Made by a program: the position numbers and the translations under genes. The notes under the pieces were generated by a model. That model ran no database searches. It saw only the letters and a program-made list of their open reading frames with translations, and was not told the origin of the DNA. From the IMG/VR virus record IMGVR_UViG_3300037851_000192, positions 1 to 64,000 of that record: a stretch of DNA of 64,000 nt; one strand, given 5' to 3'. This document shows, piece by piece, positions 8,792 through 41,977 of this stretch; position 1 is the first letter of the stretch; every line of letters begins with the position of its first letter. The DNA is from a virus.

Positions 8792-8995
8792 ATGGGTCCG
8801 GTTGTCGAGTTCGATGGTTGCGAGGCGCTACGGGAGACCGATCTAGCGATCCTCGTCCGCTTCGAGGACGGGCGCGAGGAGTGGATCCCGAAGTCGCAAA
8901 TCGCAGACGACTCCGAGGTCTTCGACGCGGACGAGAACCGGGCCGGGACGTTGGTCGTGACCGAGTGGATCGCAGAACAGAAGGGGCTAGCATGA
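8792..8995 (+). CDS. hypothetical protein
   Basis: ATG 8792 within ORF 8597..8995; MGPVVEFDGCEALRETDLAILV... Confidence 0.5.
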   Translation: MGPVVEFDGCEALRETDLAILVRFEDGREEWIPKSQIADDSEVFDADENRAGTLVVTEWIAEQKGLA

Positions 8996-9600
8996 AGATC
9001 GAGACATTCGCGGGCGTGTTTCAATTCAACGGCGCGGAGCGGCGCTTTGCGCTCGAGGGCGACGCGCTTCGGATCGGGCCGCTCTCGGTCAACGAAGCAA
9101 GCGGCTTGCTCTCGGCGATCGAGGACCGCGAGGGCGTGCAACCTGCCGAGCCCGTGAAGGTAAAGGCCGAGCCCGTCGAGCTTGCGGGCGGCACGAAGGC
9201 CGCGGGCCGTGTGAAGAAGCCCGCGGAGGCTCGACCCGAGCCCGTGAAGGCGGAGCCCCCGAGGCAAGTTGAGCTACCGAAGGTCGAGCCCGTGAAGGCG
9301 GAGCCGGAGCCGGCCGACGAGGCCGAGATCCCGTTCGGTAAGCCGGAGGCCGAGGCGAGCCCGGACAACGGCGGAGGCGTGGCCGAGACCGTGAAGGCGG
9401 GCGACGCGGCGGGGCGTCTCGACTTGTCCGCGGCGAAGCGCTTGGCCGACGTGATCTCGGCGTTGCAAGAGCAAGGGATCACGGACGCGGAGGCCTTGAT
9501 CGCGGAGTGCGAGCGGCTCCGGCCCGAGGTTCCGCTCCTTGCGCGGATCCCCGATATGCGCGATCGCGTCGAGCGAACTCTCGCCACGCTTGGACAATGA
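8992..9600 (+). CDS. hypothetical protein with Pro/Glu/Lys/Val-rich linker
   Basis: ATGA overlap start 8992; repeated EPVKAEP-type linker. Confidence 0.5.
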   Translation: MKIETFAGVFQFNGAERRFALEGDALRIGPLSVNEASGLLSAIEDREGVQPAEPVKVKAEPVELAGGTKAAGRVKKPAEARPEPVKAEPPRQVELPKVEPVKAEPEPADEAEIPFGKPEAEASPDNGGGVAETVKAGDAAGRLDLSAAKRLADVISALQEQGITDAEALIAECERLRPEVPLLARIPDMRDRVERTLATLGQ

Positions 9601-18650: not shown

Positions 18651-19480
18651 TCCGGCTTACGCGGCCGCTCGTGCTCGCGTTCGACTTGAACGGCTTCGTC
18701 CATCGTGCTTTTCACGGGCAGCCCTACCGCGCGGCGAGGCTCGCGATCGGCTGGGCTGCGCGGGCGATGCGCGTGCACCAACCCGAGTTCGTGGTCGCGG
18801 CGATCGATCGGCCGTTCCCGACGTTTCGGCATGAGCGCTTTCCGGCGTACAAGAGCAAGGGCAGGGTCACGGGCGACGAGCGGGCGCGCGTGCTCGGGCA
18901 GCTTCGCGAGGCCGAGGAACTCCTCGAGGACGTGCTCGGCGTCCGGACGCTTTGGGCCGAGGGCTTCGAGGCGGACGATATGCTCGCGACGATCGCGCGC
19001 GAGGCAAACAGCCGTGGCTTCGGTTGCATGATCGCGACGAAGGACAAGGACCTCGCGCAAGTTGTGGGCAGCGGCGTGTGGCTCCTCGACTTCATGACGG
19101 GCGAGATCGTCGGGCCCGATCAAGTTGTCGAGCGCTTCGGCGTTCCGCCCGAGAAAATGGCGGACTACCTCGCGTTGGTCGGGGATTCGTCGGATTGCTA
19201 CCCGGGGGCGCCGGGGATTGGGCCGAAGGCCGCGGTCGAGATCCTAAAGTTCGCGGAGGGCGCGCTCGCGGCGTGCGAGAGGTCGGCGGCGTTTTCCTGC
19301 TCGGATCCGAATGTTGCCGGGACGCCGTTCGCGCGCGACGCAATTCGGCGCAAGCTCGCCGCGGGCGCGGCCGATGTTCTCGTGTCGCTTGACCTCGCCC
19401 GGCTTCGCGACGACGTTCCGATCGTGATCGACTTCGAGGCACTCGAGGCGCTACCCGTTCCCGACGAGGTTTCCGCGTGA
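18647..19480 (+). CDS. 5'-3' exonuclease / flap endonuclease
   Basis: LAFDLNGFVHRAF, ATKDKDLAQV, GDSSDCYPGAPGIGPKAA (H3TH). Confidence 0.8.
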   Translation: MIRLTRPLVLAFDLNGFVHRAFHGQPYRAARLAIGWAARAMRVHQPEFVVAAIDRPFPTFRHERFPAYKSKGRVTGDERARVLGQLREAEELLEDVLGVRTLWAEGFEADDMLATIAREANSRGFGCMIATKDKDLAQVVGSGVWLLDFMTGEIVGPDQVVERFGVPPEKMADYLALVGDSSDCYPGAPGIGPKAAVEILKFAEGALAACERSAAFSCSDPNVAGTPFARDAIRRKLAAGAADVLVSLDLARLRDDVPIVIDFEALEALPVPDEVSA

Positions 19481-19755
19481 CGTTCGCCGATTGCAAGTAC
19501 GCCGACCTCGTGGCGGAGGGACTCGCGGGGCAAGTGCGCGTCCATCGTGAGCGGCTTGGCTGCTCGAAGCGGAGGCTCGCGAAGCTCGTCGGGATCGAGC
19601 CGAGCTATGTGACGAAGATCGAGAGCGGCGAGAAGGTGCCGAGCGTGGCCGTGCTCGTTCGGATCGCGTTCCACTTGCGGATTCCCCCGTCGCGCTTGTT
19701 CGCGGACGCGGAGCAATTCGCGGCGACGTTCGGCGAGGTTGGTTGGATCCGGTGA
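19477..19755 (+). CDS. XRE-family helix-turn-helix regulator
   Basis: LGCSKRRLAKLVGIEPSYVTKIESGEKVPSVAVLVRIA. Confidence 0.7.
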   Translation: MTFADCKYADLVAEGLAGQVRVHRERLGCSKRRLAKLVGIEPSYVTKIESGEKVPSVAVLVRIAFHLRIPPSRLFADAEQFAATFGEVGWIR

Positions 19756-23649: not shown

Positions 23650-24558
23650 ATGAGCGCGGCAGCGGGGATCTACTCGAGGGACCTCTACAATCGGCTTGTG
23701 GGAGCCTTCCGAGAAGCGGGGGGCGTGGCAAGGCATGCGGCGCGCTTGTGCGGGGTGAACGAGAAGACCGCACGAAAGGCCTACCTTTTGGGCTGGCCCC
23801 GCTACGATTGGGCGCGGCCCATTCAACTAGTGCTAGCGGAGGAACGGGAGAAGTCCTTGTCGGTGGTGGCCGAAAGGGCCCGGCGCGAGGCGGCCCGAGC
23901 GGAAGCCGAAGGCCGGGCAGCCCGCGAGCACTCCGTCGAAGCGGTGGCGCAAGAGGCCGCGGTACTGACCGCGGCACGGAAGAACGTGCTCGCGGTCTTC
24001 GGGCTAAGCGCCCGGCTCGTGCCGGCGATGGACGCGCTTGTGGGCGTCGTGCGTCACGCGACCCTTGGGCCGGACGGGAAGCCACGACCGGCGCATGAGA
24101 TCGACCTAACGCCCGAGCAAGCGCTCGGGCTCTTGAAGTCGCACGCCGGGATCCTTTCCCGGGCGATGGCGGTCGGGCAGCAAGTGATCGAGCTTGGGCG
24201 CGCGGAGCGGGGGCAGGCTTCGGCGATCGTCGGCGTGGCCGTGGCGGACCTAACCCCGGAGCAAGCCGCGGAGTTGATCGAGGAGCAAGAGGCAGCGGTC
24301 GAGCTAATCCGCGGCGCCGGCCGGCGGGGAGCTATCCGAGACCGGCCCCGGATGCTTGGGGGGCCCGGCGGCCCGAGCAAGGTCGAGATCCTCGAACACC
24401 GCGAGGCGCTCGAGGCGTTCGGCGCGGGGGCTCCGGCGGAACCGCTCGAGGACGTCGAGGGCGACGCGGCCGCGGTCCCGCGTTTCGTTTCGGACGCCCG
24501 CGCGGAAACTTCCGGCGGGGCGTTCGCCGCGAACGGCGCCGGCGGGGGCGGCTCATGA
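23650..24558 (+). CDS. HTH-domain protein (regulator or possible small terminase)
   Basis: N-terminal HTH VARHAARLCGVNEKTARKAY followed by a long helical region. Function not established. Confidence 0.5.
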   Translation: MSAAAGIYSRDLYNRLVGAFREAGGVARHAARLCGVNEKTARKAYLLGWPRYDWARPIQLVLAEEREKSLSVVAERARREAARAEAEGRAAREHSVEAVAQEAAVLTAARKNVLAVFGLSARLVPAMDALVGVVRHATLGPDGKPRPAHEIDLTPEQALGLLKSHAGILSRAMAVGQQVIELGRAERGQASAIVGVAVADLTPEQAAELIEEQEAAVELIRGAGRRGAIRDRPRMLGGPGGPSKVEILEHREALEAFGAGAPAEPLEDVEGDAAAVPRFVSDARAETSGGAFAANGAGGGGS

Positions 24559-30793: not shown

Positions 30794-30815
30794 CTTATAG
30801 CACGAACGATGCCAA
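30794..30815 (-). promoter_or_regulatory. bipartite promoter-like cassette copy M1
   Basis: TTGGCATCGTTCGTGCTATAAG, then 8 nt, then ATG 30785. Confidence 0.5.
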
Positions 30816-31083: not shown

Positions 31084-31105
31084 CTTATAGCACACGTCAT
31101 GCCAA
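31084..31105 (-). promoter_or_regulatory. bipartite promoter-like cassette copy M2
   Basis: TTGGCATGACGTGTGCTATAAG + 8 nt + ATG 31075. Its TGA is the stop codon of the upstream gene. Confidence 0.5.
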
Positions 31106-31402
31106 CCGAGCGGAGCGGGCGGCGAGCACGAGCGCGGCGAGCCGCTCCCGGTCCGGTCCGTGAAGGTTGATCCGCGCGACGCCGGCTTCCATGGTCGGGT
31201 AGTCGCGCGAGAACGTCGGGCGCGTGGTCTCGTAGCTTCGGATCCGATGGCGCCAAACCTCCGTGAGTAGAGCCCGAACCGTGCGCAACGGACGGCCGGT
31301 GATCGCGGCAAGCTCGGCCGCGGAATGGTCCCGCCCGTCGGCGAGGTAGGCTTCCGTGATCTCGGCTGCAAAGGTGGCGACTTGTTCCGTCGTGGTCTTC
31401 AT
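31097..31402 (-). CDS. hypothetical protein with HTH-like segment
   Basis: ATG 31402 (MKTTTEQV..., GGAG upstream); SAAELAAITGRPLRTVRALL. Confidence 0.5.
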   Translation of the reverse strand: MKTTTEQVATFAAEITEAYLADGRDHSAAELAAITGRPLRTVRALLTEVWRHRIRSYETTRPTFSRDYPTMEAGVARINLHGPDRERLAALVLAARSARLA

Positions 31403-31404
31403 GG

Positions 31405-31578
31405 TCAACTCCATGGGCCGAAGTGAACGACGCGGTCTTGCTGCTCGGCCGCCCAAGCGTTGGCTTGCTCGGGGCTCGCGAGCCCGTCGCGAACCATGCG
31501 GGCCGCTTTCGTGGCGATCTCCGCGTAGCGGCGTTCGGTGGCTTGCTCCTCGAGGCGTTGGAACTCTTGGCGCGTCAT
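31405..31578 (-). CDS. small hypothetical protein (57 aa, below ORF-track cutoff)
   Basis: Hand translation: MTRQEFQRLEEQATERRYAEIATKAARMVRDGLASPEQANAWAAEQQDRVVHFGPWS; GGGAG upstream. Confidence 0.4.
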   Translation of the reverse strand: MTRQEFQRLEEQATERRYAEIATKAARMVRDGLASPEQANAWAAEQQDRVVHFGPWS

Positions 31579-31812: not shown

Positions 31813-31834
31813 CTTATAGCACACGTCATGCCAA
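31813..31834 (-). promoter_or_regulatory. bipartite promoter-like cassette copy M3
   Basis: TTGGCATGACGTGTGCTATAAG + 8 nt + ATG 31804. Confidence 0.5.
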
Positions 31835-31835
31835 A

Positions 31836-32097
31836 CGGCCGGATCGTGCTAAGTGCCCGATCCCTCGAGTTCGACCGAGCCGCGCCCCTTGCGTCGAGGT
31901 ATGACAGCCGCGTCATACTGAACTGCCTCCGAACGGCACTTTCGGCGAAAACCGCAACGGGTTCGCGGCCTTGGATATATGGCAGCGAGTATGACATTCG
32001 TGTCATGGTAAACGGGCTCCCGGTCGCGTCGGCGGCGAATTGCGCTGGACTTCCGCGAGGTTGCCGCCGTCCTCGAGGTATGACATTCGTGTCATAC
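31836..32097. repeat. non-coding repeat block L1 with three ATGACA-N4-TGTCAT palindromes
   Basis: Palindromes at 31899-31918, 31989-32008 and 32078-32097. Direct repeat of block L2. GCTAAGTG box at 31848-31855. Confidence 0.8.
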
Positions 32098-32613
32098 TGC
32101 GCTGGCCGTGGCGTTACACTCGGCAAGGAGCGCGTCGGCTTCGCCACGGTCGAGCGCGGCTTCGGCAAGTTGGCGGGCGAGGCCGGTCTCGTCGTAGCAC
32201 TTGTGGCCCATATCGTCGTCGCCGCGGCCGAAGCTCCGCCAATAGCCGTCGCCGGCAATCCAGCAAGATTCGCCGAGGATCTCGACGCTCTCGCTGCGCG
32301 GGCGCGCCTTCAAGGCGACGAGCCGGCGCTCGATCGCGTCGGCGTAGGGGTAGACGATCTCGCGGTCATACTCCGCGTCACAGTAGCGGTTGCCGCCGTT
32401 CAGGATCTCCCCGTGCTCGTCGCGGTCGATCCGGGCGTGGCCCGCGACGATCTCCTTCACCTTGGAGATCGAAACGTAAGGGCTGCGCACCTTTACGGCG
32501 ATCGAGGAGCCGAGCGAGTAGAACTCACACCGGACCGAGACCAACCGGGGCTTGATCCCCGCTGCCTTCAACTGCGCCCGAATCTCCGCCGCGTGGTCTT
32601 TCGTGGTCTTCAT
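32092..32613 (-). CDS. hypothetical protein (N-terminus recalls LPD29-type polyvalent-protein domain; unverified)
   Basis: MKTTKDHAAEIRAQLKAAGIKPRLVSVRCEFYSLGSSIAVKV; cassette upstream. Confidence 0.55.
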   Translation of the reverse strand: MKTTKDHAAEIRAQLKAAGIKPRLVSVRCEFYSLGSSIAVKVRSPYVSISKVKEIVAGHARIDRDEHGEILNGGNRYCDAEYDREIVYPYADAIERRLVALKARPRSESVEILGESCWIAGDGYWRSFGRGDDDMGHKCYDETGLARQLAEAALDRGEADALLAECNATASAV

Positions 32614-32621
32614 GGTTTCCT

Positions 32622-32643
32622 CTTATAGCACGTATGATGCCAA
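32622..32643 (-). promoter_or_regulatory. bipartite promoter-like cassette copy M4
   Basis: TTGGCATCATACGTGCTATAAG + 8 nt + ATG 32613. Confidence 0.5.
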
Positions 32644-32652
32644 CCGCCGGGC

Positions 32653-32877
32653 CTACTCGGCCTCGAGCGCGCGAACGCGGATCCGCGTCGTGCCGAAGAA
32701 GACGCGCACGTCCTCGGCCGCCGCGCTCATGTAGTGGTGAGCGTTCGAGAGCGTCACGCGGACGCGGCTCTTGCCCACGGGCTCGACCGCGGACACAAGC
32801 CATTCCGTCCCGCAAGCCTCGACCGCCCAATCGCCGGCCGTCAACTCGCTCGCCTTCTTCGTCGTCGTGGTCTTCAT
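32653..32877 (-). CDS. hypothetical protein (MKT...)
   Basis: ATG 32877 in ORF 32653..32883(-). Confidence 0.5.
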   Translation of the reverse strand: MKTTTTKKASELTAGDWAVEACGTEWLVSAVEPVGKSRVRVTLSNAHHYMSAAAEDVRVFFGTTRIRVRALEAE

Positions 32878-32885
32878 GGTCAACT

Positions 32886-32907
32886 CTTATAGCACGGATG
32901 ATGCCAA
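32886..32907 (-). promoter_or_regulatory. bipartite promoter-like cassette copy M5
   Basis: TTGGCATCATCCGTGCTATAAG + 8 nt + ATG 32877. Confidence 0.5.
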
Positions 32908-32929
32908 CCGACCGACCGGGCCCCGCGGG

Positions 32930-33235
32930 CTAGAGGGAGAGGTAGAGCCCGGTCGTGCGCTCGAAGGTCTCGCGCATTTGCGCCGTGTCGAGGCCTTCGA
33001 CCTCGAGGACCGTCCGCACGTCGAAGCGGGCGAGCTTGTAGATCGTGACGTTGTAGAGGTCCGCGCCGCGGTCGTAGGTCACGGTCACGGCGTTCGCCTT
33101 GCGCGAGCCCTTGAACTTGAACGAGACGCGGCACGCTTCGTTGTCGTAGGTGAAGCCGTGGGCGCCAAGCATGGCCGAGAGCTTGCCGAAGCCGCCGAGT
33201 TGCTCGATCGTGGTTGCGTTCTGCTCGTTCATCAT
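32930..33235 (-). CDS. hypothetical protein (MMNEQ...)
   Basis: ATG 33235 in ORF 32930..33259(-). The longer start would lie inside the cassette. Confidence 0.55.
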   Translation of the reverse strand: MMNEQNATTIEQLGGFGKLSAMLGAHGFTYDNEACRVSFKFKGSRKANAVTVTYDRGADLYNVTIYKLARFDVRTVLEVEGLDTAQMRETFERTTGLYLSL

Positions 33236-33242
33236 GACCTCT

Positions 33243-33264
33243 TTTATAGCACGCATCATGCCAA
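33243..33264 (-). promoter_or_regulatory. bipartite promoter-like cassette copy M6
   Basis: TTGGCATGATGCGTGCTATAAA + 7 nt + ATG 33235. Confidence 0.5.
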
Positions 33265-33268
33265 CCGA

Positions 33269-33559
33269 TCACGCGACGCGGACGCCGATCCGGCGAGTGT
33301 CCACGATCCAAAGCTCGGCGTCCTCGAGCGTTTGCCAAACGGCGAAGCCGGCAGCGTTGAAGCCGGCGGCCGCGAAGGCGTTCGCGCGGACGAGGAAGAA
33401 GTCGCCGTCGCGGGCGACGACGCGGGAATTGTTGAACATTCCGAGCCAAGCGGCCTTGCCCTTCCGGCCTTGGGTCGCGGCGAAGGTCTCGGCGGCGACG
33501 ACGGCGGGGCGGGAGGCGACGAGGCGGGCGGGGACGGCGGCGAGGTTCTCGGTCTTCAT
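33269..33559 (-). CDS. hypothetical protein (MKT...)
   Basis: ATG 33559 in ORF 33269..33802(-); first gene of the leftward arm. Confidence 0.5.
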   Translation of the reverse strand: MKTENLAAVPARLVASRPAVVAAETFAATQGRKGKAAWLGMFNNSRVVARDGDFFLVRANAFAAAGFNAAGFAVWQTLEDAELWIVDTRRIGVRVA

Positions 33560-33566
33560 GCTTCGA

Positions 33567-33588
33567 GTTATAGCACGCGGCATGCCAA
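33567..33588 (-). promoter_or_regulatory. bipartite promoter-like cassette copy M7
   Basis: TTGGCATGCCGCGTGCTATAAC + 7 nt + ATG 33559. Confidence 0.5.
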
Positions 33589-33853
33589 CCGATCGGGCTG
33601 CGCTAAGTGTCCGATCTCTCGAGCGCTCCGGCCGCGGGCTCCTCGCGTCGAAGCATGACAGCCGTGTCATGCTGAACTGCCTCCGAACGGCCCTTTCGGC
33701 GAAAACCGCAACGTGTTCGCGAGGTTGGATATATGGCAGCAAGTATGACATTCGTGTCATAGCAAACGGGCTCTTGGGCCCTCCGCTCCGCGAAAAGTGC
33801 AAGCGGTTCCGCAGCTTACGCCGTTCGAGCGAGGTATGACATCCGTGTCATAC
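33589..33853. repeat. non-coding repeat block L2 with three ATGACA-N4-TGTCAT palindromes
   Basis: Palindromes at 33653-33672, 33743-33762 and 33834-33853; GCTAAGTG at 33602-33609. Confidence 0.8.
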
Positions 33854-34100
33854 CTGAACGCGGAGGCACGGCCGACGCTCGAGGGCTCCGAGCGCTCCGC
33901 CCGTTGACCCACGGTCAAGAATTGTCACCGGCTCGCAGCCGTAAGCTCGCGTTTCCTATAGCACGCACGCCATAAGCGGACGGCGCGCGCGGCCGGAGCG
34001 ATCGGCTAAGTGCGCGATTCTTGGAGCGTGTGCCGCGAATTGTCACACGCATGCTATAAGAGCTGCCGAAAATTGTCACGCCGGAGGGGTTGACCCACGG

Positions 34101-34122
34101 GCCCAAACCTCGAGGTTTGGGC
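34101..34122. promoter_or_regulatory. perfect 22-bp palindrome GCCCAAACCTCGAGGTTTGGGC, 20 bp upstream of cassette P1
   Basis: Self-complementary over all 22 positions; lies in the divergent control region. Confidence 0.6.
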
Positions 34123-34142
34123 ACTTGCGCGCGTTCGGATCT

Positions 34143-34164
34143 TTGGCATGGCGCGTGCTATAAC
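34143..34164 (+). promoter_or_regulatory. bipartite promoter-like cassette copy P1
   Basis: TTGGCATGGCGCGTGCTATAAC + 7 nt + ATG 34172. Confidence 0.5.
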
Positions 34165-34171
34165 TCCAAGC

Positions 34172-34504
34172 ATGAAGACGAACGAGACGCGCAAGGCTGG
34201 CAACGTGACCGTGACCCGTAGCCGTGTCCTCGGGACCGCCTGCTACGTCTACACCGCTTGGGAGCCTTCGAGCGCGACCGGGCACGGCACGGTCACGACG
34301 ATCGACGGCGCTTGGCACGGCGAGATCGGAAGCCGTCGGGCTCCCGAAGCGGCGCTCGCGCTCCCGGTCGGGCCGGCTCGCTGGGCGGCGCTCGACGCGG
34401 ACCGCGCGGCGCAATACGCCGAGGCGCACGCGGCGATCGTCGCGGCCTTCCCCGAGGCCGCGGAAGGCACGCGCGAGAACGGCCGGATCTCGGTTTGGTC
34501 GTGA
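34172..34504 (+). CDS. hypothetical protein (MKT...)
   Basis: ATG 34172 in ORF 34148..34504; first gene of the rightward arm. Confidence 0.55.
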   Translation: MKTNETRKAGNVTVTRSRVLGTACYVYTAWEPSSATGHGTVTTIDGAWHGEIGSRRAPEAALALPVGPARWAALDADRAAQYAEAHAAIVAAFPEAAEGTRENGRISVWS

Positions 34505-34562
34505 CCTCGAGAACCCCGGGCCGGCTCCGGTCGGCCCAAGCATAGCAAGGAGATCGCAACCC

Positions 34563-34922
34563 ATGAAGACGAGCAGCAACGCAACGCGCAAGGCGGAGAT
34601 CGTGGCAAGCCGTGGCGGATCGCGCGAGGTCCGGATCACGATCACGGACGGCGCGCCGAACGGCCCGCGGGCTAGCTCGCGCGCGCTCGACGCCGAGGCC
34701 TTCCGGCTCGCGGCCGAGGTCGAGCTTGCAACCCCGACGGTCGAGCGGTGGATCGTTCGTGTCGAGCGCGCCTTCGCGCGCTCCTCGGCCGTCGTGATCG
34801 AGCTTGCCAAGGGGACGGCGGACGAAGCCGCGCGGGCTCTGTCCGTGGCGTTTGCGGCGCTCGAGGTCGAGCTTTGCAGCGCGGCGCCGTTGCACGAGCG
34901 GACCGCGTCTCGGTTGGCATGA
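34563..34922 (+). CDS. hypothetical protein (MKT...)
   Basis: ATG 34563 preceded by AAGGAG; its stop TGA lies inside cassette P2. Confidence 0.5.
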   Translation: MKTSSNATRKAEIVASRGGSREVRITITDGAPNGPRASSRALDAEAFRLAAEVELATPTVERWIVRVERAFARSSAVVIELAKGTADEAARALSVAFAALEVELCSAAPLHERTASRLA

Positions 34923-34935
34923 CGTGTGCTATACA
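34914..34935 (+). promoter_or_regulatory. bipartite promoter-like cassette copy P2
   Basis: TTGGCATGACGTGTGCTATACA + 7 nt + ATG 34943. Confidence 0.5.
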
Positions 34936-34942
34936 AGAGGGC

Positions 34943-35548
34943 ATGATGAACGAGACGACGACGGCGTGGCGGTTGGTGGCGGTTCGGGACGTGCGGCCGG
35001 TCGACCTCGACACGGGCAAGCGGATCGACCTCCCCGCCGATATGCTTCCGGAGTGCTGCCGTTGCGGCCGGCGGCACGCCAAGGTCTACGAGGTCACGGA
35101 CGGCGCCCGCGTGCGGACGGTCGGATCGGGATGCGTCCGCGCGGCCTTCGACGGTTGGGAGCCGACGGCCGAGGAGCTTCGGACCGCGCGCAAGGTCGAG
35201 CGGAAGGCGCTCGAGGACGCCCGCCGCGCGTCGATCGCGGCGCGTGCGGCCGAGCTTCTTCCGGCCGCCGTGGCCGTTCTGGCAAGCGTTCCCGCGCCGG
35301 CGGTTCTTAGCACGCGGACGACGGATCCCTTCGGAAATGCGGTCGCCCCGATCGTTCAGTGGGGGAACGACTTCGCCCGCGTTTGGTGCCGCGACGGTCT
35401 CACGGCCGAACGCCGATCGACGCTCGAGGACGCGACGCGCGAGCGGGTGGCCCATCGGGTGGTCGGCGACGCTATGCCCGGCGCACGCTACGCGCTCCGC
35501 GTGCTCGTCGCGGCCGCGCTCGAGGCCTTGATCCGGGGGCGGTCGTGA
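34943..35548 (+). CDS. hypothetical protein (MMNET...), Cys cluster CCRCG
   Basis: ATG 34943 in ORF 34748..35548. Confidence 0.55.
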   Translation: MMNETTTAWRLVAVRDVRPVDLDTGKRIDLPADMLPECCRCGRRHAKVYEVTDGARVRTVGSGCVRAAFDGWEPTAEELRTARKVERKALEDARRASIAARAAELLPAAVAVLASVPAPAVLSTRTTDPFGNAVAPIVQWGNDFARVWCRDGLTAERRSTLEDATRERVAHRVVGDAMPGARYALRVLVAAALEALIRGRS

Positions 35549-35841
35549 GCCGGGGGCGGGACCTCGACGGCCGGGCGGGCTGCGTCCGGCTCGGGCGCTC
35601 GAGGCAAACCGGCCGGCTCGTCGGCGTCTACCGCTCGAGGGACGCGGGGTTGGACGAGGGCGAGCCCGGCGAGTTCTCGACGGCTTGGTCGGTCGTGTGC
35701 GAGGAGCACGGGGCGATCGTCGGGCTCGGGACGCGGAGGGACGCCGAGCTTGCCGCGGCCGACCCGCGCGGGTTCTGCGAGGACTGCCAAGCCGAAGCCC
35801 AACCTACACGGACGCATGACAGCCGTGTCATACTGAACTGA
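35545..35841 (+). CDS. hypothetical protein
   Basis: GTG 35545 (GTGA overlap); 3' end runs into repeat block R1. Confidence 0.45.
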   Translation: MSRGRDLDGRAGCVRLGRSRQTGRLVGVYRSRDAGLDEGEPGEFSTAWSVVCEEHGAIVGLGTRRDAELAAADPRGFCEDCQAEAQPTRTHDSRVILN

Positions 35842-35948
35842 GCAAAAGTGAATCAAGCCCGCGAGACCGTTGAAGAAAAGAGCTATGACATTCGTGTCAT
35901 AGAAGTGAAAGGTTTGCGTAGCGGCAGATCCGCGCACTTAGCGGATCG
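35803..35948. repeat. 146-bp repeat block R1 with two ATGACA-N4-TGTCAT palindromes
   Basis: Near-identical to 37210-37355. Palindromes at 35814-35833 and 35883-35902; CACTTAGC at 35935-35942. Confidence 0.85.
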
Positions 35949-36018
35949 GGGCTCCTCGAGGCGCACGGCCCGGGGCTCCTCGAGGCGCACGGCCCGGGGC
36001 TCCTCGAGGCGCACGGCT
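35947..36018. repeat. 3 x 24-bp tandem repeat CGGGGCTCCTCGAGGCGCACGGCC
   Basis: Units 35947-35970, 35971-35994 and 35995-36018 (last base differs), between block R1 and cassette P3. Confidence 0.85.
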
Positions 36019-36052
36019 TCGGCCGTTCGGGCACTTCGGCCGGTTGTGTTGT

Positions 36053-36074
36053 TTGGCATGGCGCGTGCTATAAC
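36053..36074 (+). promoter_or_regulatory. bipartite promoter-like cassette copy P3
   Basis: TTGGCATGGCGCGTGCTATAAC + 7 nt + ATG 36082. Confidence 0.5.
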
Positions 36075-36081
36075 TCCAAGC

Positions 36082-36468
36082 ATGAAGACGCCGACCGAAC
36101 TCCTTGCCCCCTACGCCGCCTTGACCCCGTGCGACCCGACCGAGGGCCCGACGTTCCGCGCCATCGCGCGCAAGCTCTCGAAGGGCGCCCGGCGCTTCGT
36201 CGGCGCCGTCTACTCCGCGCCCGTGACGCTCACGCGCAACCCCGAGCTTTGCCGATGCTTCCGCGAGCTTTCCGAGGCCGACCGCGCGCGCATGCTCGTT
36301 TGGCGGACCTCGAACACGCGAGGGCAGACCGTGATCAAGGCGGAGCACGAGGACGCGCTTCGCGAGTGCATTCGCGCCGGGCTCCTCGAGGTTGCCAAGC
36401 TCGGGGAAGGCGTGGGCGTCGCTCGCGCGACCGACCTCGGCCGCCGCGTCTACCTTCACGTCTACTAG
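36082..36468 (+). CDS. hypothetical protein (MKT...)
   Basis: ATG 36082 in ORF 35848..36468. The upstream part of that ORF covers repeats and is rejected. Confidence 0.55.
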   Translation: MKTPTELLAPYAALTPCDPTEGPTFRAIARKLSKGARRFVGAVYSAPVTLTRNPELCRCFRELSEADRARMLVWRTSNTRGQTVIKAEHEDALRECIRAGLLEVAKLGEGVGVARATDLGRRVYLHVY

Positions 36469-36484
36469 GCCGACGGCCGCCCGG

Positions 36485-36506
36485 CTGGCATGCCGCGTGC
36501 TATAAG
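36485..36506 (+). promoter_or_regulatory. bipartite promoter-like cassette copy P4
   Basis: CTGGCATGCCGCGTGCTATAAG + 8 nt + ATG 36515. Confidence 0.5.
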
Positions 36507-36514
36507 AGGGAAGC

Positions 36515-36697
36515 ATGAAGACGCCGAAGCCGAGCAAGTGGAACCGGGCGATCGTGGTCTCGGTTCCCGGGCACAACGAAGACGATCCCGCAACCTACCA
36601 CGTGATCTCGCGCGACCGCGCCGAGCGTTACGCGCTCGACACGCAGACCTTCGCGACGGCGAAGGAAGCGGCCCGCGCGCTCCGGGGGGCAGCATGA
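36515..36697 (+). CDS. hypothetical protein (MKT...)
   Basis: ORF 36515..36697. Confidence 0.5.
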   Translation: MKTPKPSKWNRAIVVSVPGHNEDDPATYHVISRDRAERYALDTQTFATAKEAARALRGAA

Positions 36698-36900
36698 AGC
36701 CGAGGACGACGACGGCTAAGGGCGGGACGATCTACCGGCCGTGCCCGTGCGGCGAGACCGCGCACGATCTCATGGTCTGCCCGGCCGCGCTCGTGCCCGA
36801 GGCTCCGGCCGTGGCCGTGAACGAGTGGGGCAACGTGTGGATCTACAAGTGTCGAAATTGCCGAGCGCGGATCTACCGCACGACGCGGGGGGCAGCATGA
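36694..36900 (+). CDS. hypothetical Cys-rich small protein
   Basis: ATGA overlap start 36694; CPCGE...CP...CRNC. Confidence 0.5.
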   Translation: MKPRTTTAKGGTIYRPCPCGETAHDLMVCPAALVPEAPAVAVNEWGNVWIYKCRNCRARIYRTTRGAA

Positions 36901-37226
36901 CCGGCCGCCCGGTCTCGAGGGCTTCCGCGCGCGCGCTCGTGCGCGCCGGCGTCGAGGTCCGGTTCGGCCGACGCGGGCTCGAGGCGCCGGCGTGGGCCGC
37001 GATCGTCGCCTCCGCCTACTCCGATCCCCTTGCCGCGGTCGAGCCTTTGCGCGGGCTGCTAGCACTCCGCCACGGGCCCGAGCTTGCGGCCGCGGCGTTC
37101 GGGCTCCGGGCCCCGATCCCGGGGGCGGCCGCGCGCGTCTTCGCGCTGCTCGGTCCGGCCGCGCGGGTTGCCGTCGAGCCCGGCCGCGGCGACCAACCGA
37201 CGCGGCTTGCCTACACGGACGCATGA
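36897..37226 (+). CDS. hypothetical protein
   Basis: ATGA overlap start 36897; 3' end runs into repeat block R2. Confidence 0.45.
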   Translation: MTGRPVSRASARALVRAGVEVRFGRRGLEAPAWAAIVASAYSDPLAAVEPLRGLLALRHGPELAAAAFGLRAPIPGAAARVFALLGPAARVAVEPGRGDQPTRLAYTDA

Positions 37227-37355
37227 CAGCCGTGTCATACTGAACTCGGCAAAAGTGAATCAAGCGCGCGGAACCGTTGAAGAAACGAGCTATGACATTC
37301 GTGTCATAGAAGTGAAAGGTTTGCGTAGCAGCGGATCCGCGCACTTAGCGGATCG
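37210..37355. repeat. 146-bp repeat block R2 with two ATGACA-N4-TGTCAT palindromes
   Basis: Palindromes at 37221-37240 and 37290-37309; CACTTAGC at 37342-37349. Confidence 0.85.
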
Positions 37356-37433: not shown

Positions 37434-37455
37434 TTGGCATGGCGCGTGCTATAAC
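37434..37455 (+). promoter_or_regulatory. bipartite promoter-like cassette copy P5
   Basis: TTGGCATGGCGCGTGCTATAAC + 7 nt + ATG 37463. Confidence 0.5.
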
Positions 37456-37791: not shown

Positions 37792-37813
37792 TTGGCATGG
37801 TGCGTGCTATACT
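37792..37813 (+). promoter_or_regulatory. bipartite promoter-like cassette copy P6
   Basis: TTGGCATGGTGCGTGCTATACT + 8 nt + ATG 37822. Confidence 0.5.
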
Positions 37814-38141: not shown

Positions 38142-38163
38142 TTGGCATGGCGTGTGCTATAAC
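38142..38163 (+). promoter_or_regulatory. bipartite promoter-like cassette copy P7 (no ORF; ATG position reads ATC)
   Basis: TTGGCATGGCGTGTGCTATAAC + 7 nt + ATC 38171. Confidence 0.5.
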
Positions 38164-38172
38164 TTCAAGCAT

Positions 38173-38259
38173 CGCAGGCACCGACGAAAAGCCCCCGGGC
38201 GGGGGGCCCGCAAGGGCGATCGGTGGCTCGGCCGGGTTCGACTCCCGGGCTTGCGACCA
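38173..38259 (+). ncRNA. tRNA-like RNA element (acceptor stem + T-arm + encoded CCA; no canonical D or anticodon arm)
   Basis: 7-bp acceptor stem 38173-38179/38249-38255 (one G-U). T-arm CCGGG-TTCGACT-CCCGG at 38232-38248. A-CCA at 38256-38259. Internal GC hairpins at 38192-38205 and 38206-38217 (GCAA loop). Confidence 0.5.
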
Positions 38260-38312
38260 GACGAACGAAGGATCACGGGCTCGACGCCCAAGACGGGATC
38301 CGAGGTGAGACC

Positions 38313-38729
38313 ATGGCAGACGAAGCGCGAGAGATCGACACGAGCACCGACCGCGATTGGCTCCGGCCGTCGGATTGGTTTCGGGACGTCCGAACGCGGG
38401 CGGGGTTGACGCAGCAGGAATTTGCGGCGGCGAACGTGGTCGCCCAATCGGTCGTGACCGTTTGGGAGCGGCCGAGCGATGCGACGCCGCGGCCCGAGAC
38501 GCTCGCACGCGTGGCGGCGGTGCTCGGCGTCGAGCCCCCGATCATGCTTTGCCGCGCCGGGGGCGTCATGATCCGGCGGGCGCAACGCGAGCCGGAGATC
38601 GACCGCGAGAAGCTCGCGGCGAGCAACCCGAAGGTGGCGAAGCGGTTCCGGCGCGGACCGCTCGCGGAACGGAGGAACGCGCCAAGGGAGGACCATGCGC
38701 CCGAGGAAGAAGGCGACGCGGTGGCATGA
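38313..38729 (+). CDS. XRE-like helix-turn-helix protein
   Basis: ATG 38313 (GAGGTGAG upstream); RTRAGLTQQEFAAANVVAQSVVTVWERP. Confidence 0.6.
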   Translation: MADEAREIDTSTDRDWLRPSDWFRDVRTRAGLTQQEFAAANVVAQSVVTVWERPSDATPRPETLARVAAVLGVEPPIMLCRAGGVMIRRAQREPEIDREKLAASNPKVAKRFRRGPLAERRNAPREDHAPEEEGDAVA

Positions 38730-40207: not shown

Positions 40208-40532
40208 CGTCGCGTGGTATCTGATAGCGGGCGCGATCGTGCTCGGCGCGGCGCTCGTGACCGTCGGCTTGTCGAAGAACGCGGCGCGATGGGAGGCGGA
40301 GCTTAGGTTGCCCGCGTGGTTTAGCGTCGCGGGCGAGGTTGTCGCGATCGTGATCGCAACGGCCGGCGGGGCGGCCGCGGGCTTCTGGACGTGGCATTGG
40401 GGGCTCGGCCTCTTGTCCGGTCTCGTCGGCTCGCTCTCGGCGTCGATCGTCGTGCGGTTCGTGGCCGCGTGGATCGAGCGAAGGCGGGGCGAGAACGACG
40501 ACGAGATCAAGAAGGCGGATCGACCGGGATAG
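40161..40532 (+). CDS. integral membrane protein (about 3 TM segments)
   Basis: WYLIAGAIVLGAALVTVGL, VAGEVVAIVIATAGGAAAGFW, LGLLSGLVGSLSASIVVRFV. Confidence 0.5.
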   Translation: MNPPTPVQHTAPVPNDVAWYLIAGAIVLGAALVTVGLSKNAARWEAELRLPAWFSVAGEVVAIVIATAGGAAAGFWTWHWGLGLLSGLVGSLSASIVVRFVAAWIERRRGENDDEIKKADRPG

Positions 40533-41826
40533 CTCCGGCGCGGCGCTCCGCCTTGCGGCCCGTGAGTTCTTCCCAACGGCGGACCGAGACGTCGCACCAC
40601 TTGGGTTCGACGTCGATCCCGATGCACCGGCGGCCGGTCTTCTCGCACGCGATCACGGTTGTCCCCGAGCCGAGGAACGGATCGAAGACAAGCTCGCCGG
40701 CGTCGCTCGAGTTCTCGATCAATTCGGCGAACAAGACGACCGGCTTCGCCGCGTTGTGCTTGCGCTCGTGCCCGCTCACGCGCGGATAGCGGACGAGGTT
40801 TAGCTTGTGGACCTGCCGTTGCCCTACGCGCGACGAGCGCTTCATGATCCGCTCCTTCGGAAGCGCCGCGAAGAACGCCACAAACTCGTGCGTGTTAGCG
40901 TAGGACGAGCCGAGCCCGCACGATAGCTTGTCCCAAACGATGCAGTTCTTAGGCGTGAGCCCGCCGCGTCGCGCGCCATCCCAAAGCGCGGCGTAGCTCC
41001 GCCAATCGCAGCACACGTAAACGTGTGCGAACATGCGAACGTGTTCGCCGCAAATGCGCGCGAGCTTCTCGAAGAAGGGGCGAACCATCTTGTCGTCTGC
41101 AATATCGGCAGCGATCCCCGTGCTCGACCCGTAGATCGCGAACGGCGGATCGGTCAGAACGAGATCGACTAGCGCGTCCTCGAGGAGCGCGCGGCGCTGC
41201 TCCTCGTGAAAGGTGTCGACGCACGCGATCTTGTGATCTCCGAGGATCCAAAGGTCGCCCGGCTTCGTGATCGGATCGGCTAGCGAAACGAACCGCTCGG
41301 GCTCCTCGTCTTCGTCGGTTGCCTCGGGCGGCGCCTCGTCCGTCGTGATCTCGAGTTCGCCGGCGCTCGTCGCGGCCGCGATCAAGGAGTCGATCTCGCC
41401 GCTCTCGAAGCCGAAGTCCACGGGAAGGATCTCGCCTTCCGCCGCAAGGTCCGCGAGCACGCGGCCGAGGTCGGCGTCGCTCCGCCACGTTCCGCGCTTT
41501 TGGTCTAGTTTGATCGTGAGCGCCTTGGCTTCGCGCTCGGTCAAGCCGTGCAAGAGCACCATGGGCCCTTCGTGAAGGCCGACGTCGCGCGCGGCGATCC
41601 ATCGGTGCTCGCCGTCAATGATGAGGTTGCGAGGCGTGGCGATCTCGTCGGTCGCCCATACGAGAAGCGCTTGTGATACGAGCCAACCGTCCTCGCGGAA
41701 GCCGTGGCGGATCGACGCCATGACGTGTTCGGGGACGTGGTTTGGGTTCCAGCTATTCGGCCGCACTTGGTCGAGCGGAAGGATCTCGACCTTGCCGCGC
41801 AGCCTGGCGGCGTTCTGCTCGTGCAC
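40507..41826 (-). CDS. ParB-like domain fused to DNA (N6-adenine/N4-cytosine) methyltransferase
   Basis: GTG 41826 with GAGG 8 nt upstream; ILPLDQVRPNSWNPN...IIDGEHRWIAA (ParB); LTDPPF (motif IV); FDPFLGSGTT (motif I). Confidence 0.75.
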   Translation of the reverse strand: MHEQNAARLRGKVEILPLDQVRPNSWNPNHVPEHVMASIRHGFREDGWLVSQALLVWATDEIATPRNLIIDGEHRWIAARDVGLHEGPMVLLHGLTEREAKALTIKLDQKRGTWRSDADLGRVLADLAAEGEILPVDFGFESGEIDSLIAAATSAGELEITTDEAPPEATDEDEEPERFVSLADPITKPGDLWILGDHKIACVDTFHEEQRRALLEDALVDLVLTDPPFAIYGSSTGIAADIADDKMVRPFFEKLARICGEHVRMFAHVYVCCDWRSYAALWDGARRGGLTPKNCIVWDKLSCGLGSSYANTHEFVAFFAALPKERIMKRSSRVGQRQVHKLNLVRYPRVSGHERKHNAAKPVVLFAELIENSSDAGELVFDPFLGSGTTVIACEKTGRRCIGIDVEPKWCDVSVRRWEELTGRKAERRAGAIPVDPPS

Positions 41827-41977
41827 GAATGACCTCGCGAAGAAGTTCGACAACGATCGTGTTGCGGGACAGATACCCGCCGCGAACGCGCATCGTGGCG
41901 CGCTTGATCTCGTCCACGTCGGCAAGCAACCGCTTGTCGAGCCGGACGAACAAGACGACGTGTTCGCGCGCCATCAT
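41753..41977 (-). CDS. ribbon-helix-helix protein
   Basis: ATG 41977 in ORF 41753..42148(-); VVLFVRLDKRLLADVDEIKRA...SRNTIVVELLREVI; 3' 74 nt overlap the methyltransferase start. Confidence 0.55.
   Translation of the reverse strand: MMAREHVVLFVRLDKRLLADVDEIKRATMRVRGGYLSRNTIVVELLREVIRARAERRQAARQGRDPSARPSAAE

Follow-up and report, generated by a model that had tools for sequence, protein, structure and literature searches.

Phased palindrome arrays upstream of sigma-54-type promoters are probable enhancers in a group of uncultivated phages

Introduction

The viral record IMGVR_UViG_3300037851_000192 of the IMG/VR database contains, between positions 31,836 and 37,355, four non-coding blocks (L1, L2, R1 and R2) in which the palindrome ATGACA-N4-TGTCAT is repeated, and the question that this locus raises is what the palindromes are for. 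We analysed positions 1 to 64,000 of the record, a stretch of 64,000 nucleotides that we call the window. A first-pass annotation of the window had offered two readings: sites for an enhancer-binding protein acting on promoters of the -24/-12 type, or operators for a phage repressor that loops DNA. The first of these is the one that gains from our results, through the promoter geometry, the co-occurrence of palindromes and promoters, the phasing of the sites and a linked helix-turn-helix (HTH) protein, whereas the second loses ground because the sites do not overlap the promoter cores. Our conclusion is that the palindromes are probably enhancer arrays for sigma-54 promoters, bound by an HTH domain of the NtrC/Fis type and working with an ATPase supplied by the host.

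Accounts of phage gene expression generally invoke sigma-70 promoters, sigma factors of the phage itself or phage-encoded RNA polymerases, and sigma-54 transcription is viewed as a cellular stress and nutrient system that always needs a dedicated ATPase activator. In the full-text literature, which most subscription journals lie outside, we found no phage arrays of sigma-54 promoters, no mention of the palindrome in a sigma-54 context, and no linked proteins with only an HTH_8 domain.

Results

Ten palindromes lie upstream of sigma-54-type promoters

The sequence ATGACANNNNTGTCAT has nine exact matches in the 64 kb of the window (0.00 expected, from 100 shuffles), and a mismatch-tolerant search adds a single site at 31901–31916, for a total of 10 against 0.32 expected and no further copies. 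The ten sites in the first-pass annotation are therefore nine exact copies and one, the first, with a mismatch; their 16-bp cores start two nucleotides after the start positions that it gave. Its other measurements hold: the spacers are GCCG in four sites, TTCG in five and TCCG in one, CTGAACT directly follows every GCCG site (at 31918, 33672, 35833 and 37240), and neighboring sites are 89–91 bp apart in L1 (90 and 89 bp) and L2 (90 and 91 bp) and 69 bp apart in both R1 and R2. L1 and L2 are 85% identical to each other, and R1 and R2 84% (about 310 columns). Since these are repeat copies, conservation within the genome is weak evidence, and the argument rests on other genomes.

Every one of the four blocks is upstream of a sigma-54-type promoter. 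The 20-mer TTGGCATGnnnnGTGCTATAA, the 'cassette' of the first-pass annotation, occurs in 14 exact copies (0.1 expected) and has the form TGGCAT-N6-TGCTATAA, in which the GG and GC doublets are separated by 10 bp, exactly as in sigma-54 promoters (-24 GG and -12 GC; TGGCAC-N5-TTGCW). A 10-bp separation of the elements is incompatible with -35/-10 recognition by the sigma-70 family, which is thereby excluded. The promoters are divergently arranged, and the small genes and short operons between 30.8 and 38.2 kb, presumed to be the early region, each start at one of them. At all 14 promoters an ATG follows the -12 GC by 13–16 nt, and most of the genes begin with MKT. This placement is compatible with a sigma-54 start about 12 nt downstream of the GC, and with only about 1–6 nt between the ATG and the predicted start, the mRNAs would have no leader or almost none. 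In that case the 'GAGG' found ahead of some of the ATGs would fall in untranscribed DNA.

Measured from the TGGCA of the nearest promoter, the centers of the palindromes are 75–300 bp upstream; no site overlaps the -24/-12 elements, and each of the window's promoters has a palindrome block within about 1.3 kb upstream.

Palindromes and promoters recur together in other phages

Single-motif scans of IMG/VR with the exact 16-mer or with the window's promoter 21-mer gave only single, chance-like matches. A pattern of two palindromes 66–94 bp apart found 12 stretches of IMG/VR with GC contents of 44–68% and spacers that are all different, and replication or early proteins of the window have counterparts in several of these contigs. 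We also collected relatives through the early protein encoded at 32930–33235. Two of them, L151 and L154, have multi-block palindrome arrays: in L151 the textbook sigma-54 consensus, TGGCACCGGTGTTGCATAC, stands on both sides of each three-site block in divergent orientation, and in L154 TGGCA-N7-TGC occurs 20 times within 20 kb, the letters between the two conserved elements being variable. In 12 early-protein relatives without palindromes there is essentially no promoter motif. Another contig, L412, comes from a phage closely related to that of the window (one protein is 69% identical); its promoters, TGGCATG-N4-KTGCTATAA, are like those of the window, and it has one two-site block, with spacers GGTC and TTCC, between divergent promoters. 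Relatives also carry the textbook forms TGGCAC-N5-TTGCA, TGGCAC-N5-TTGCATAC and similar. Conservation of the sites in homologous phages, which the first-pass annotation had proposed as a check, is thus borne out, L151, L154 and L412 included.

A metagenome scan for the palindrome pair alone returned at least 120 loci. Among the 120 listed, TGGCA-N7-TGC occurs 78 times within 350 bp of a palindrome, as against 2–13 times for the same motif with gaps of 4–6 or 8–10, and 75 of these 78 motifs face away from the palindromes. Across 193 distinct promoter sites the consensus is tTGGCA(C/T)(A/G)-N4-(G/T)TGCA(A/T), which is the sigma-54 logo, and ATG is enriched 13–14 nt after the GC. The 210 distinct palindromes from 74 loci with the promoter motif have the consensus (G/C)TATGACA-N4-TGTCATA(G/C), with fixed half-sites and 89 different spacers. 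We refer to this combination of palindromes and promoters as the module; the palindrome occurs in phage contigs from 35% to 73% GC.

The positions of the sites are phased. Distances between neighboring sites peak at 43–45, 55, 66–70, 79–81 and 85–91 bp, a ladder of about 11 bp, and the window's spacings of 69 and 89–91 bp sit on two of its peaks (about 6 and about 8 turns). In 83 de-duplicated promoters that have a palindrome within 400 bp on the upstream side, the T of TGGCA is most often 50, 61–62 or 72 bp from the center of the nearest site.

Could the -24/-12-like motif be read by a factor of the phage's own, with the palindromes binding the activator of that factor? In its favor, the promoter of this genome is a long and nearly invariant 20-mer, and the phage encodes a sigma-like protein (at 767–1285) that could serve, as could some other factor. 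Across lineages, however, only TGGCA, TGC and their spacing are conserved, they match the sigma-54 consensus position by position, and the 10-bp separation does not suit the sigma-70 family. In contig L036, moreover, such a promoter precedes the sigma-like gene, which makes the gene an output of the system and not its reader. We consider a phage-specific reader very unlikely. The sigma-like protein of the window is small and resembles sigma70_r2 (Pfam E-value 1.3e-3), and a 209-residue ParB_N protein is encoded at 1282–1911; homologs of both are directly downstream of the palindrome pair and sigma-54-type promoter in L036, as if sigma-54 were the first step of a cascade that leads to a phage sigma factor.

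Another class of metagenome contigs (L211/L032 at 8815–9004, L243, L274, L246 and L175) has the palindrome core in the form ATATGACA-N4-TGTCATAT in tight tandem arrays, with a period of 16–24 bp, up to 14 copies and no sigma-54 motif nearby. Such arrays possibly serve as iterons or centromeres for a related DNA-binding domain. They raise the idea that the window's palindromes too are replication iterons, or parS-like sites for one of the phage's two ParB_N-domain proteins (1282–1911 and 40507–41925), and the AT-rich patch in L1 and L2 would suit such a role. The window's sites, however, are 69–91 bp apart and are tied to promoters by position, orientation and phase; no ParA gene or replication initiator adjoins the blocks; and, L036 excepted, ParB_N proteins do not co-vary with the sites. 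We give this explanation hardly any weight.

Most matches in the genome collection were unrelated uses of the core, such as AATGACArCGyTGTCATT in Alteromonas and tandem repeats in Treponema, and were set aside. The Alteromonas matches (Alteromonadaceae loci L065–L144) are pairs 64–67 bp apart at a conserved chromosomal locus in many Alteromonas genomes; they resemble LacI-family (NagR-type) operators and are unrelated to the phage module.

The palindromes behave as DNA sites

Palindromes with four-base spacers could also be RNA hairpins with UUCG-type tetraloops, serving as terminators, insulators or parts of small RNAs. Three of the window's blocks start where the gene before them ends, at its stop codon, and the TTCG and TCCG spacers would form UNCG loops. 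The stems, however, are A/T-rich and have no U-tract on the transcribed strand, terminator-like matches number 6 against 5.8 expected from shuffling, and an Rfam scan gave no match. The sites have 89 different spacers, and L412 retains the half-sites with other spacers. At the first flanking position, complementarity is 0.66, compared with 0.65 predicted from independent half-site preferences, and at the next three positions there is a small excess (for example, 0.47 compared with 0.38). In L151, L406 and L412 the blocks are between divergent promoters, where no transcription is expected. Because the half-sites are fixed and the spacer is free, with nearly chance-like pairing of the flanks, placement between divergent promoters and no Rfam or terminator signal, the palindromes bear the marks of sites recognized sequence-specifically by a symmetric protein dimer and not of RNA hairpins; an RNA role is, in our view, extremely improbable.

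On the minus strand, the TTCG sites at 35883–35902 (R1) and 37290–37309 (R2) are followed by T-rich runs, CTCTTTTCTT and CTCGTTTCTT, and score as terminator-like, which is in favor of hairpins. These two palindromes could stop antisense transcription; the overall count is that of chance.

A small HTH_8 protein accompanies the module

Clustering the proteins encoded next to palindromes brought out a family of small proteins (about 72–123 residues, one of them with an extra GIY-YIG-like domain) with an HTH of the form ...aL...GGN...AAraLGVs.RT..R... Pfam recognizes HTH_8 (the Fis family, PF02954) above the gathering score in 7 of 10 neighboring small proteins, the best match being 38 bits for a protein from L151. 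HTH_8 is the DNA-binding domain of NtrC-type enhancer-binding proteins, and when the family profile was compared to solved structures it matched the C-terminal domains of ZraR, NtrC-family regulators, NifA and NtrC, and Fis more weakly. A database search with the family alignment found only proteins of 46–160 residues, and no full-length activators.

The linkage of this family to the palindromes is close. In most independent cases (L116, the L176 group, L192, L250, L275, L037 and L180) the HTH_8 gene ends 0–40 bp from a palindrome. To test whether the protein predicts the module, we collected contigs through three of the database proteins alone; these contigs (L406, L408 and L410) all have both palindromes and sigma-54 motifs. 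L406 carries four three-site blocks, with 66–68 bp between sites, and TGGCAC-N5-TTGCATAC promoters that diverge; the end of its HTH_8 gene falls within the first site of one block. The blocks of L408 and L410 consist of two sites each, 65–69 bp apart, with the promoters on the outer sides. In L408 and L410 the HTH_8 gene is itself downstream of module promoters, so positive or negative feedback is possible.

In the window, the protein encoded at 23650–24558 is the best match to the family model (E-value 0.043) and the best by hhalign among 35 window proteins. Comparison of a profile of its homologs with the HTH_8 family profile gave a probability of 94% (E-value 1e-7) over 32 HTH columns. It is the window's only candidate member of the family, an assignment of moderate confidence, and thus the candidate binder of the palindromes in this phage. 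Other candidates were rejected: the HTH protein at 31097–31411 and the products of the genes that end inside blocks (35545–35841, 36897–37226 and 32092–32613) have no similarity to the HTH_8 family, and the early protein at 32930–33235 was ruled out because its family is also found in phages without palindromes.

An HTH-only protein could also be a repressor, and so could a Cro/CI-type protein, in which case the palindromes would be operators for silencing by looping and have no part in activation. Looping repressors typically use phased arrays of dyad-symmetric 16–20 bp sites, XRE-type HTH proteins are encoded in the window (19477–19755 and 38223–38729), and an HTH_8 gene downstream of module promoters would allow negative feedback. 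What makes this unlikely to us is the position of the sites, which are at -75 to -300, always upstream and never on the -24/-12 core, and from which 75 of 78 promoter motifs face away. Our clustering of neighboring proteins shows no XRE protein that co-varies with the sites, and sigma-54 promoters are off by default in the absence of an activator, which makes a repressor unnecessary. RNA hairpins, terminators and classical repressor operators all fit the data poorly.

The search for a phage-encoded activator

The enhancer reading, for which the comparative data are strong, is weakened by several results, one of which is that no canonical AAA+ activator was found in the phage. Pfam scans of about 90 open reading frames of the window detected neither a Sigma54_activat nor an RpoN domain, and TBLASTN searches of the window and about 285 loci with PspF and NtrC probes gave no match. 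The probes themselves perform as they should, since they detect 108 of 120 IMG/VR loci that a GAFTGA-coding DNA pattern had selected. Beyond the window we covered about 1 kb to its left, about 10 kb of tail genes to its right, and about 10 kb of a 71%-identical relative that is the counterpart of the left side; in total, about 84 of the roughly 100 kb of this phage lineage contain no canonical AAA+ enhancer-binding protein. The remaining 15 kb or so should be baseplate and tail-fiber genes. Nor is there a palindrome in the GAFTGA-positive IMG/VR loci or contigs, or an activator linked to the palindrome contigs.

Further points on the same side concern the binder, the distances and the host. 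About half of the larger module loci have no HTH_8 protein in the DNA examined. The assignment of the 23650–24558 product is only moderate because Pfam alone does not recognize it as HTH_8 and because its gene is about 7 kb from the nearest block. The window's site-to-promoter distances of 75.5, 135.5 and 161.5 bp are off the commonest peaks seen in other genomes. That the host of the window phage has rpoN and a matching enhancer-binding protein is an assumption, and the activator ATPase is purely inferred. As to the direction of regulation, the data fit activation and repression alike. Lastly, it is awkward for a host-encoded binder that one palindrome is shared by phages of 35–73% GC: this uniformity argues for a binder carried by the phage, just as the lack of a phage ATPase argues for involvement of the host.

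The left-side region of the relative contains lysis genes, a MoxR-like AAA+ protein with a DUF2201/VWA partner, and HNH and PD-(D/E)XK nucleases. The MoxR-like ATPase (L416, 6227–8712; 420 residues, Walker A GEPGVAKT, starting MKTT) is paired with the DUF2201/VWA protein and adjoins the endolysin; it has no GAFTGA loop, and the region has neither palindromes nor sigma-54 motifs (20 kb checked for the motifs). Three low-GC viral contigs from IMG/VR (L316, L355 and L400) do encode a canonical AAA+ enhancer-binding protein, with at least three sigma-54-like motifs and no palindrome. Phage use of sigma-54 may thus be broader than the palindrome module.

Other elements in and around the blocks

Between the palindromes and the promoter is a conserved box, CACTTAGC when read in the direction of the promoter, set in an inverted repeat that contains GATC (Table 1). 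The first-pass annotation had described it as GCTAAGTG in L1/L2 and CACTTAGC in R1/R2, which is what we find, and had missed a fifth copy (GCTAAGTG) at 34005 in the divergence region. The AT-rich patch TTGGATATATGGCA that it reported in L1 and L2 is present, at 31971 and 33725. It had also described all four blocks as having one orientation. That is true of the end formed by the GCCG site and CTGAACT; the CACTTAGC box always faces the same way with respect to its promoter and is therefore inverted between the L and R blocks. In consequence, the GCCG site is on the promoter side of the array in L1/L2 and on the far side in R1/R2. With its GATC arms and its location between the upstream sites and the promoter, the box is possibly a site for a second factor or for bending; by eye, it matches the consensus of the bending protein IHF only in part.

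Table 1. Features of the window discussed in the text.
Feature	Position	Strand	Sequence or spacer	Context
Palindrome L1-a	31901–31916		ATGACAGCCGCGTCAT, 1 mismatch, then CTGAACT	Center 75.5 bp upstream of TGGCA of leftward promoter 31815–31833
Palindrome L1-b	31991–32006		ATGACATTCGTGTCAT	90 bp from L1-a
Palindrome L1-c	32080–32095		ATGACATTCGTGTCAT	89 bp from L1-b; overlaps stop of gene 32092–32613 (-)
Palindrome L2-a	33655–33670		GCCG, then CTGAACT	Center 75.5 bp upstream of TGGCA of leftward promoter 33569–33587
Palindrome L2-b	33745–33760		TTCG	90 bp from L2-a
Palindrome L2-c	33836–33851		TCCG	91 bp from L2-b; center 300 bp upstream of TGGCA of rightward promoter 34144
Palindrome R1-a	35816–35831		GCCG, then CTGAACT	Overlaps stop of gene 35545–35841 (+)
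Palindrome R1-b	35885–35900		TTCG	69 bp from R1-a; center 161.5 bp upstream of TGGCA of promoter 36054
Palindrome R2-a	37223–37238		GCCG, then CTGAACT	Overlaps stop of gene 36897–37226 (+)
Palindrome R2-b	37292–37307		TTCG	69 bp from R2-a; center 135.5 bp upstream of TGGCA of promoter 37435
Seven leftward promoters	30796–30814, 31086–31104, 31815–31833, 32624–32642, 32888–32906, 33245–33263, 33569–33587	-	TGGCAT-N6-TGCTATA(A)	
Seven rightward promoters	34144–34162, 34915–34933, 36054–36072, 36486–36504, 37435–37453, 37793–37811, 38143–38161	+		
Conserved box	31848–31855	-	CACTTAGC (promoter orientation), in GATC-containing inverted repeat	Between palindromes and promoter
Further box copies	33602–33609, 34005–34012, 35935–35942 (+), 37342–37349 (+)		Plus-strand letters GCTAAGTG at 31848, 33602 and 34005; CACTTAGC at 35935 and 37342	
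Candidate site-binding protein, 302 residues	23650–24558	+	Residues 12–43, LYNRLVGAFREAGGVARHAARLCGVNEKTARK	N-terminal; homologous to HTH of small HTH_8 family

Other repeats are present nearby. The divergence region at 33860–34140, which separates the two gene arms, has three copies of AATTGTCAC (33920, 34038 and 34071), two of GTTGACCCACGG (33903 and 34089), a perfect hairpin GCCCAAACCTCGAGGTTTGGGC, two decayed promoter copies whose elements are wrongly spaced and, on the minus strand, two sigma-70-like matches (0.5 expected). Between R1 and its promoter, and not in R2, there are three tandem 24-bp repeats of GGGGCTCCTCGAGGCGCACGGCCC (35948–36019), and GGGCTCCTCG is also found ahead of the promoters at 37793 and 38143.

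The phage and its likely hosts

The window is from a tailed phage of 68% GC that encodes a helicase, a DnaB-like helicase, a family A polymerase fused to uracil-DNA glycosylase, an SbcC-like protein, a ParB_N-methyltransferase, and a large terminase, portal and protease, with tail genes of the myovirus type directly past its right end. A DNA similarity search of the region against isolated phages gave no match, and its terminase and polymerase have distant relatives only; the phage is novel, with no close relative among isolated phages. L410, one of the contigs found through the HTH_8 protein, is a relative with 42% identity in the portal protein. A tRNA scan of the window region found nothing.

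Evidence on hosts comes from other members. The full module is present in contigs of metagenome-assembled genomes from Polyangia/Myxococcota (L102, L116 and L147). Sorangium chromosomes (L123, L130, L087 and L035) have a palindrome pair, 80–81 bp apart, beside an integrase and an insertion sequence element, with a leftward TGGCACGTCGAGTGAAAAT whose -12 element is GA instead of GC; this locus is probably an integrated relative of the module. Because of these contigs and chromosomal pairs, Myxococcota (Polyangia) are the likely host clade of the GC-rich members. Myxococcota have many sigma-54 activators.

Discussion

We propose the following mechanism. Dimers of an HTH_8-type protein would bind the sites along a single face of the helix and assemble into a higher-order complex, in which three dimers would match the hexamer of an enhancer-binding protein; at norVW, three NorR sites are needed for the active hexamer (PMC2831303). 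By looping of the DNA, the complex would reach the closed complex of sigma-54 holoenzyme, and one block would serve the adjacent promoter and the next few tandem promoters, as the presence of a block within about 1.3 kb upstream of each window promoter suggests. Remodeling of the closed complex would use ATP through a host enhancer-binding protein, since with no AAA+ activator in the phage the ATPase must be host-derived. Either the host activator would bind the sites through its own HTH_8 domain, or the phage's HTH_8 protein (here, probably the product of 23650–24558) would recruit it. Alternatively, the phage's HTH-only protein might compete at the sites and shut the promoters off later in infection.

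An architectural role is the competitor that comes nearest to enhancer arrays: a Fis-like phage protein would bend the DNA at the palindromes, and the host activator would act from solution or from another site. The associated proteins are small, consist mainly of HTH_8 as Fis does, and have no ATPase; the phasing of about 11 bp is suited to additive bending; and the blocks contain other conserved boxes, CACTTAGC and CTGAACT. On the other hand, the palindrome is the sole recurring upstream element that we noticed across GC backgrounds (no systematic motif search was made), and the closest solved relatives of the HTH_8 family are the DNA-binding domains of enhancer-binding proteins and not Fis. 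We think this role rather unlikely, and retain enhancer arrays as the better account.

There is also a bolder possibility, which we put forward tentatively: that a widespread group of phages runs its presumed early genes on the host's sigma-54 without an AAA+ activator of its own, by means of a portable enhancer and a small NtrC/Fis-type protein. This protein would capture the ATPase of a host enhancer-binding protein, so that the activator is split or hijacked, or would open the closed complex in a non-canonical way. The first interpretation of the palindromes, as enhancer sites, was largely right and the palindromes are real; what fires the promoters could make the finding more than a variant of known enhancers.

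A cluster of short genes, of a type typically expressed early by phages, appears to be driven by sigma-54 with a portable enhancer, and this arrangement is common to many uncultivated phages of differing GC content. If true, it would be a new strategy of host take-over and a natural case of one enhancer block serving several promoters, and it would pose a sharp question: which ATPase fires the promoters when the phage brings only the DNA-binding module? The palindrome pair together with TGGCA-N7-TGC is a simple signature for finding such phages, and possibly their hosts.

Several known systems resemble the module in part. The operators of P1 C1, the stoperators of cluster A mycobacteriophages and the KorB sites of RK2 are likewise many copies of a short site spread across a block of genes and bound by one regulator that the element encodes; those regulators, in contrast, are repressors at sigma-70 promoters whose sites overlap or follow the promoters, whereas the module's sites are upstream, phased and linked to sigma-54. 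Fis, at rrnB P1 of E. coli, and NinH of lambda are small HTH_8-type proteins (about 80–120 residues) that bind as dimers to phased upstream sites, and there is a weak match to Phage_NinH in Pfam among the module's HTH_8 proteins. Fis-like proteins shape DNA or stimulate transcription, and phages encode some of them. Fis sites, however, are degenerate and A/T-centered, unlike the essentially invariant half-sites of the module, Fis acts on sigma-70 promoters, and the module's proteins match the domains of ZraR, NtrC-family regulators and NifA better than Fis. The viral contigs L316, L355 and L400 share with the module phage-borne sigma-54-like motifs and enhancer-binding machinery, but they encode a complete AAA+ activator and lack ATGACA-N4-TGTCAT.

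The closest comparison is with the upstream activator sequences of sigma-54 promoters, such as those of NtrC at glnAp2, NorR at norVW, and NifA (TGT-N10-ACA). The module differs from these in being in a phage, at 14 tandem and divergent promoters of very short genes; in having sites 43–91 bp apart, not adjacent ones; and in coming without an AAA+ activator gene, with only a short protein that has a DNA-binding domain. As an AAA+ activator was sought in the phage and not found, the module is not a complete member of this class, and to our knowledge its half-site is not that of any described enhancer-binding protein. What it shares with the class is nonetheless extensive: two or three dyad sites for each promoter region, about 75–300 bp ahead of a GG-N10-GC promoter, dependence on the face of the helix, the HTH_8 fold in the associated protein, and plausible action here on promoters some hundreds of base pairs away.

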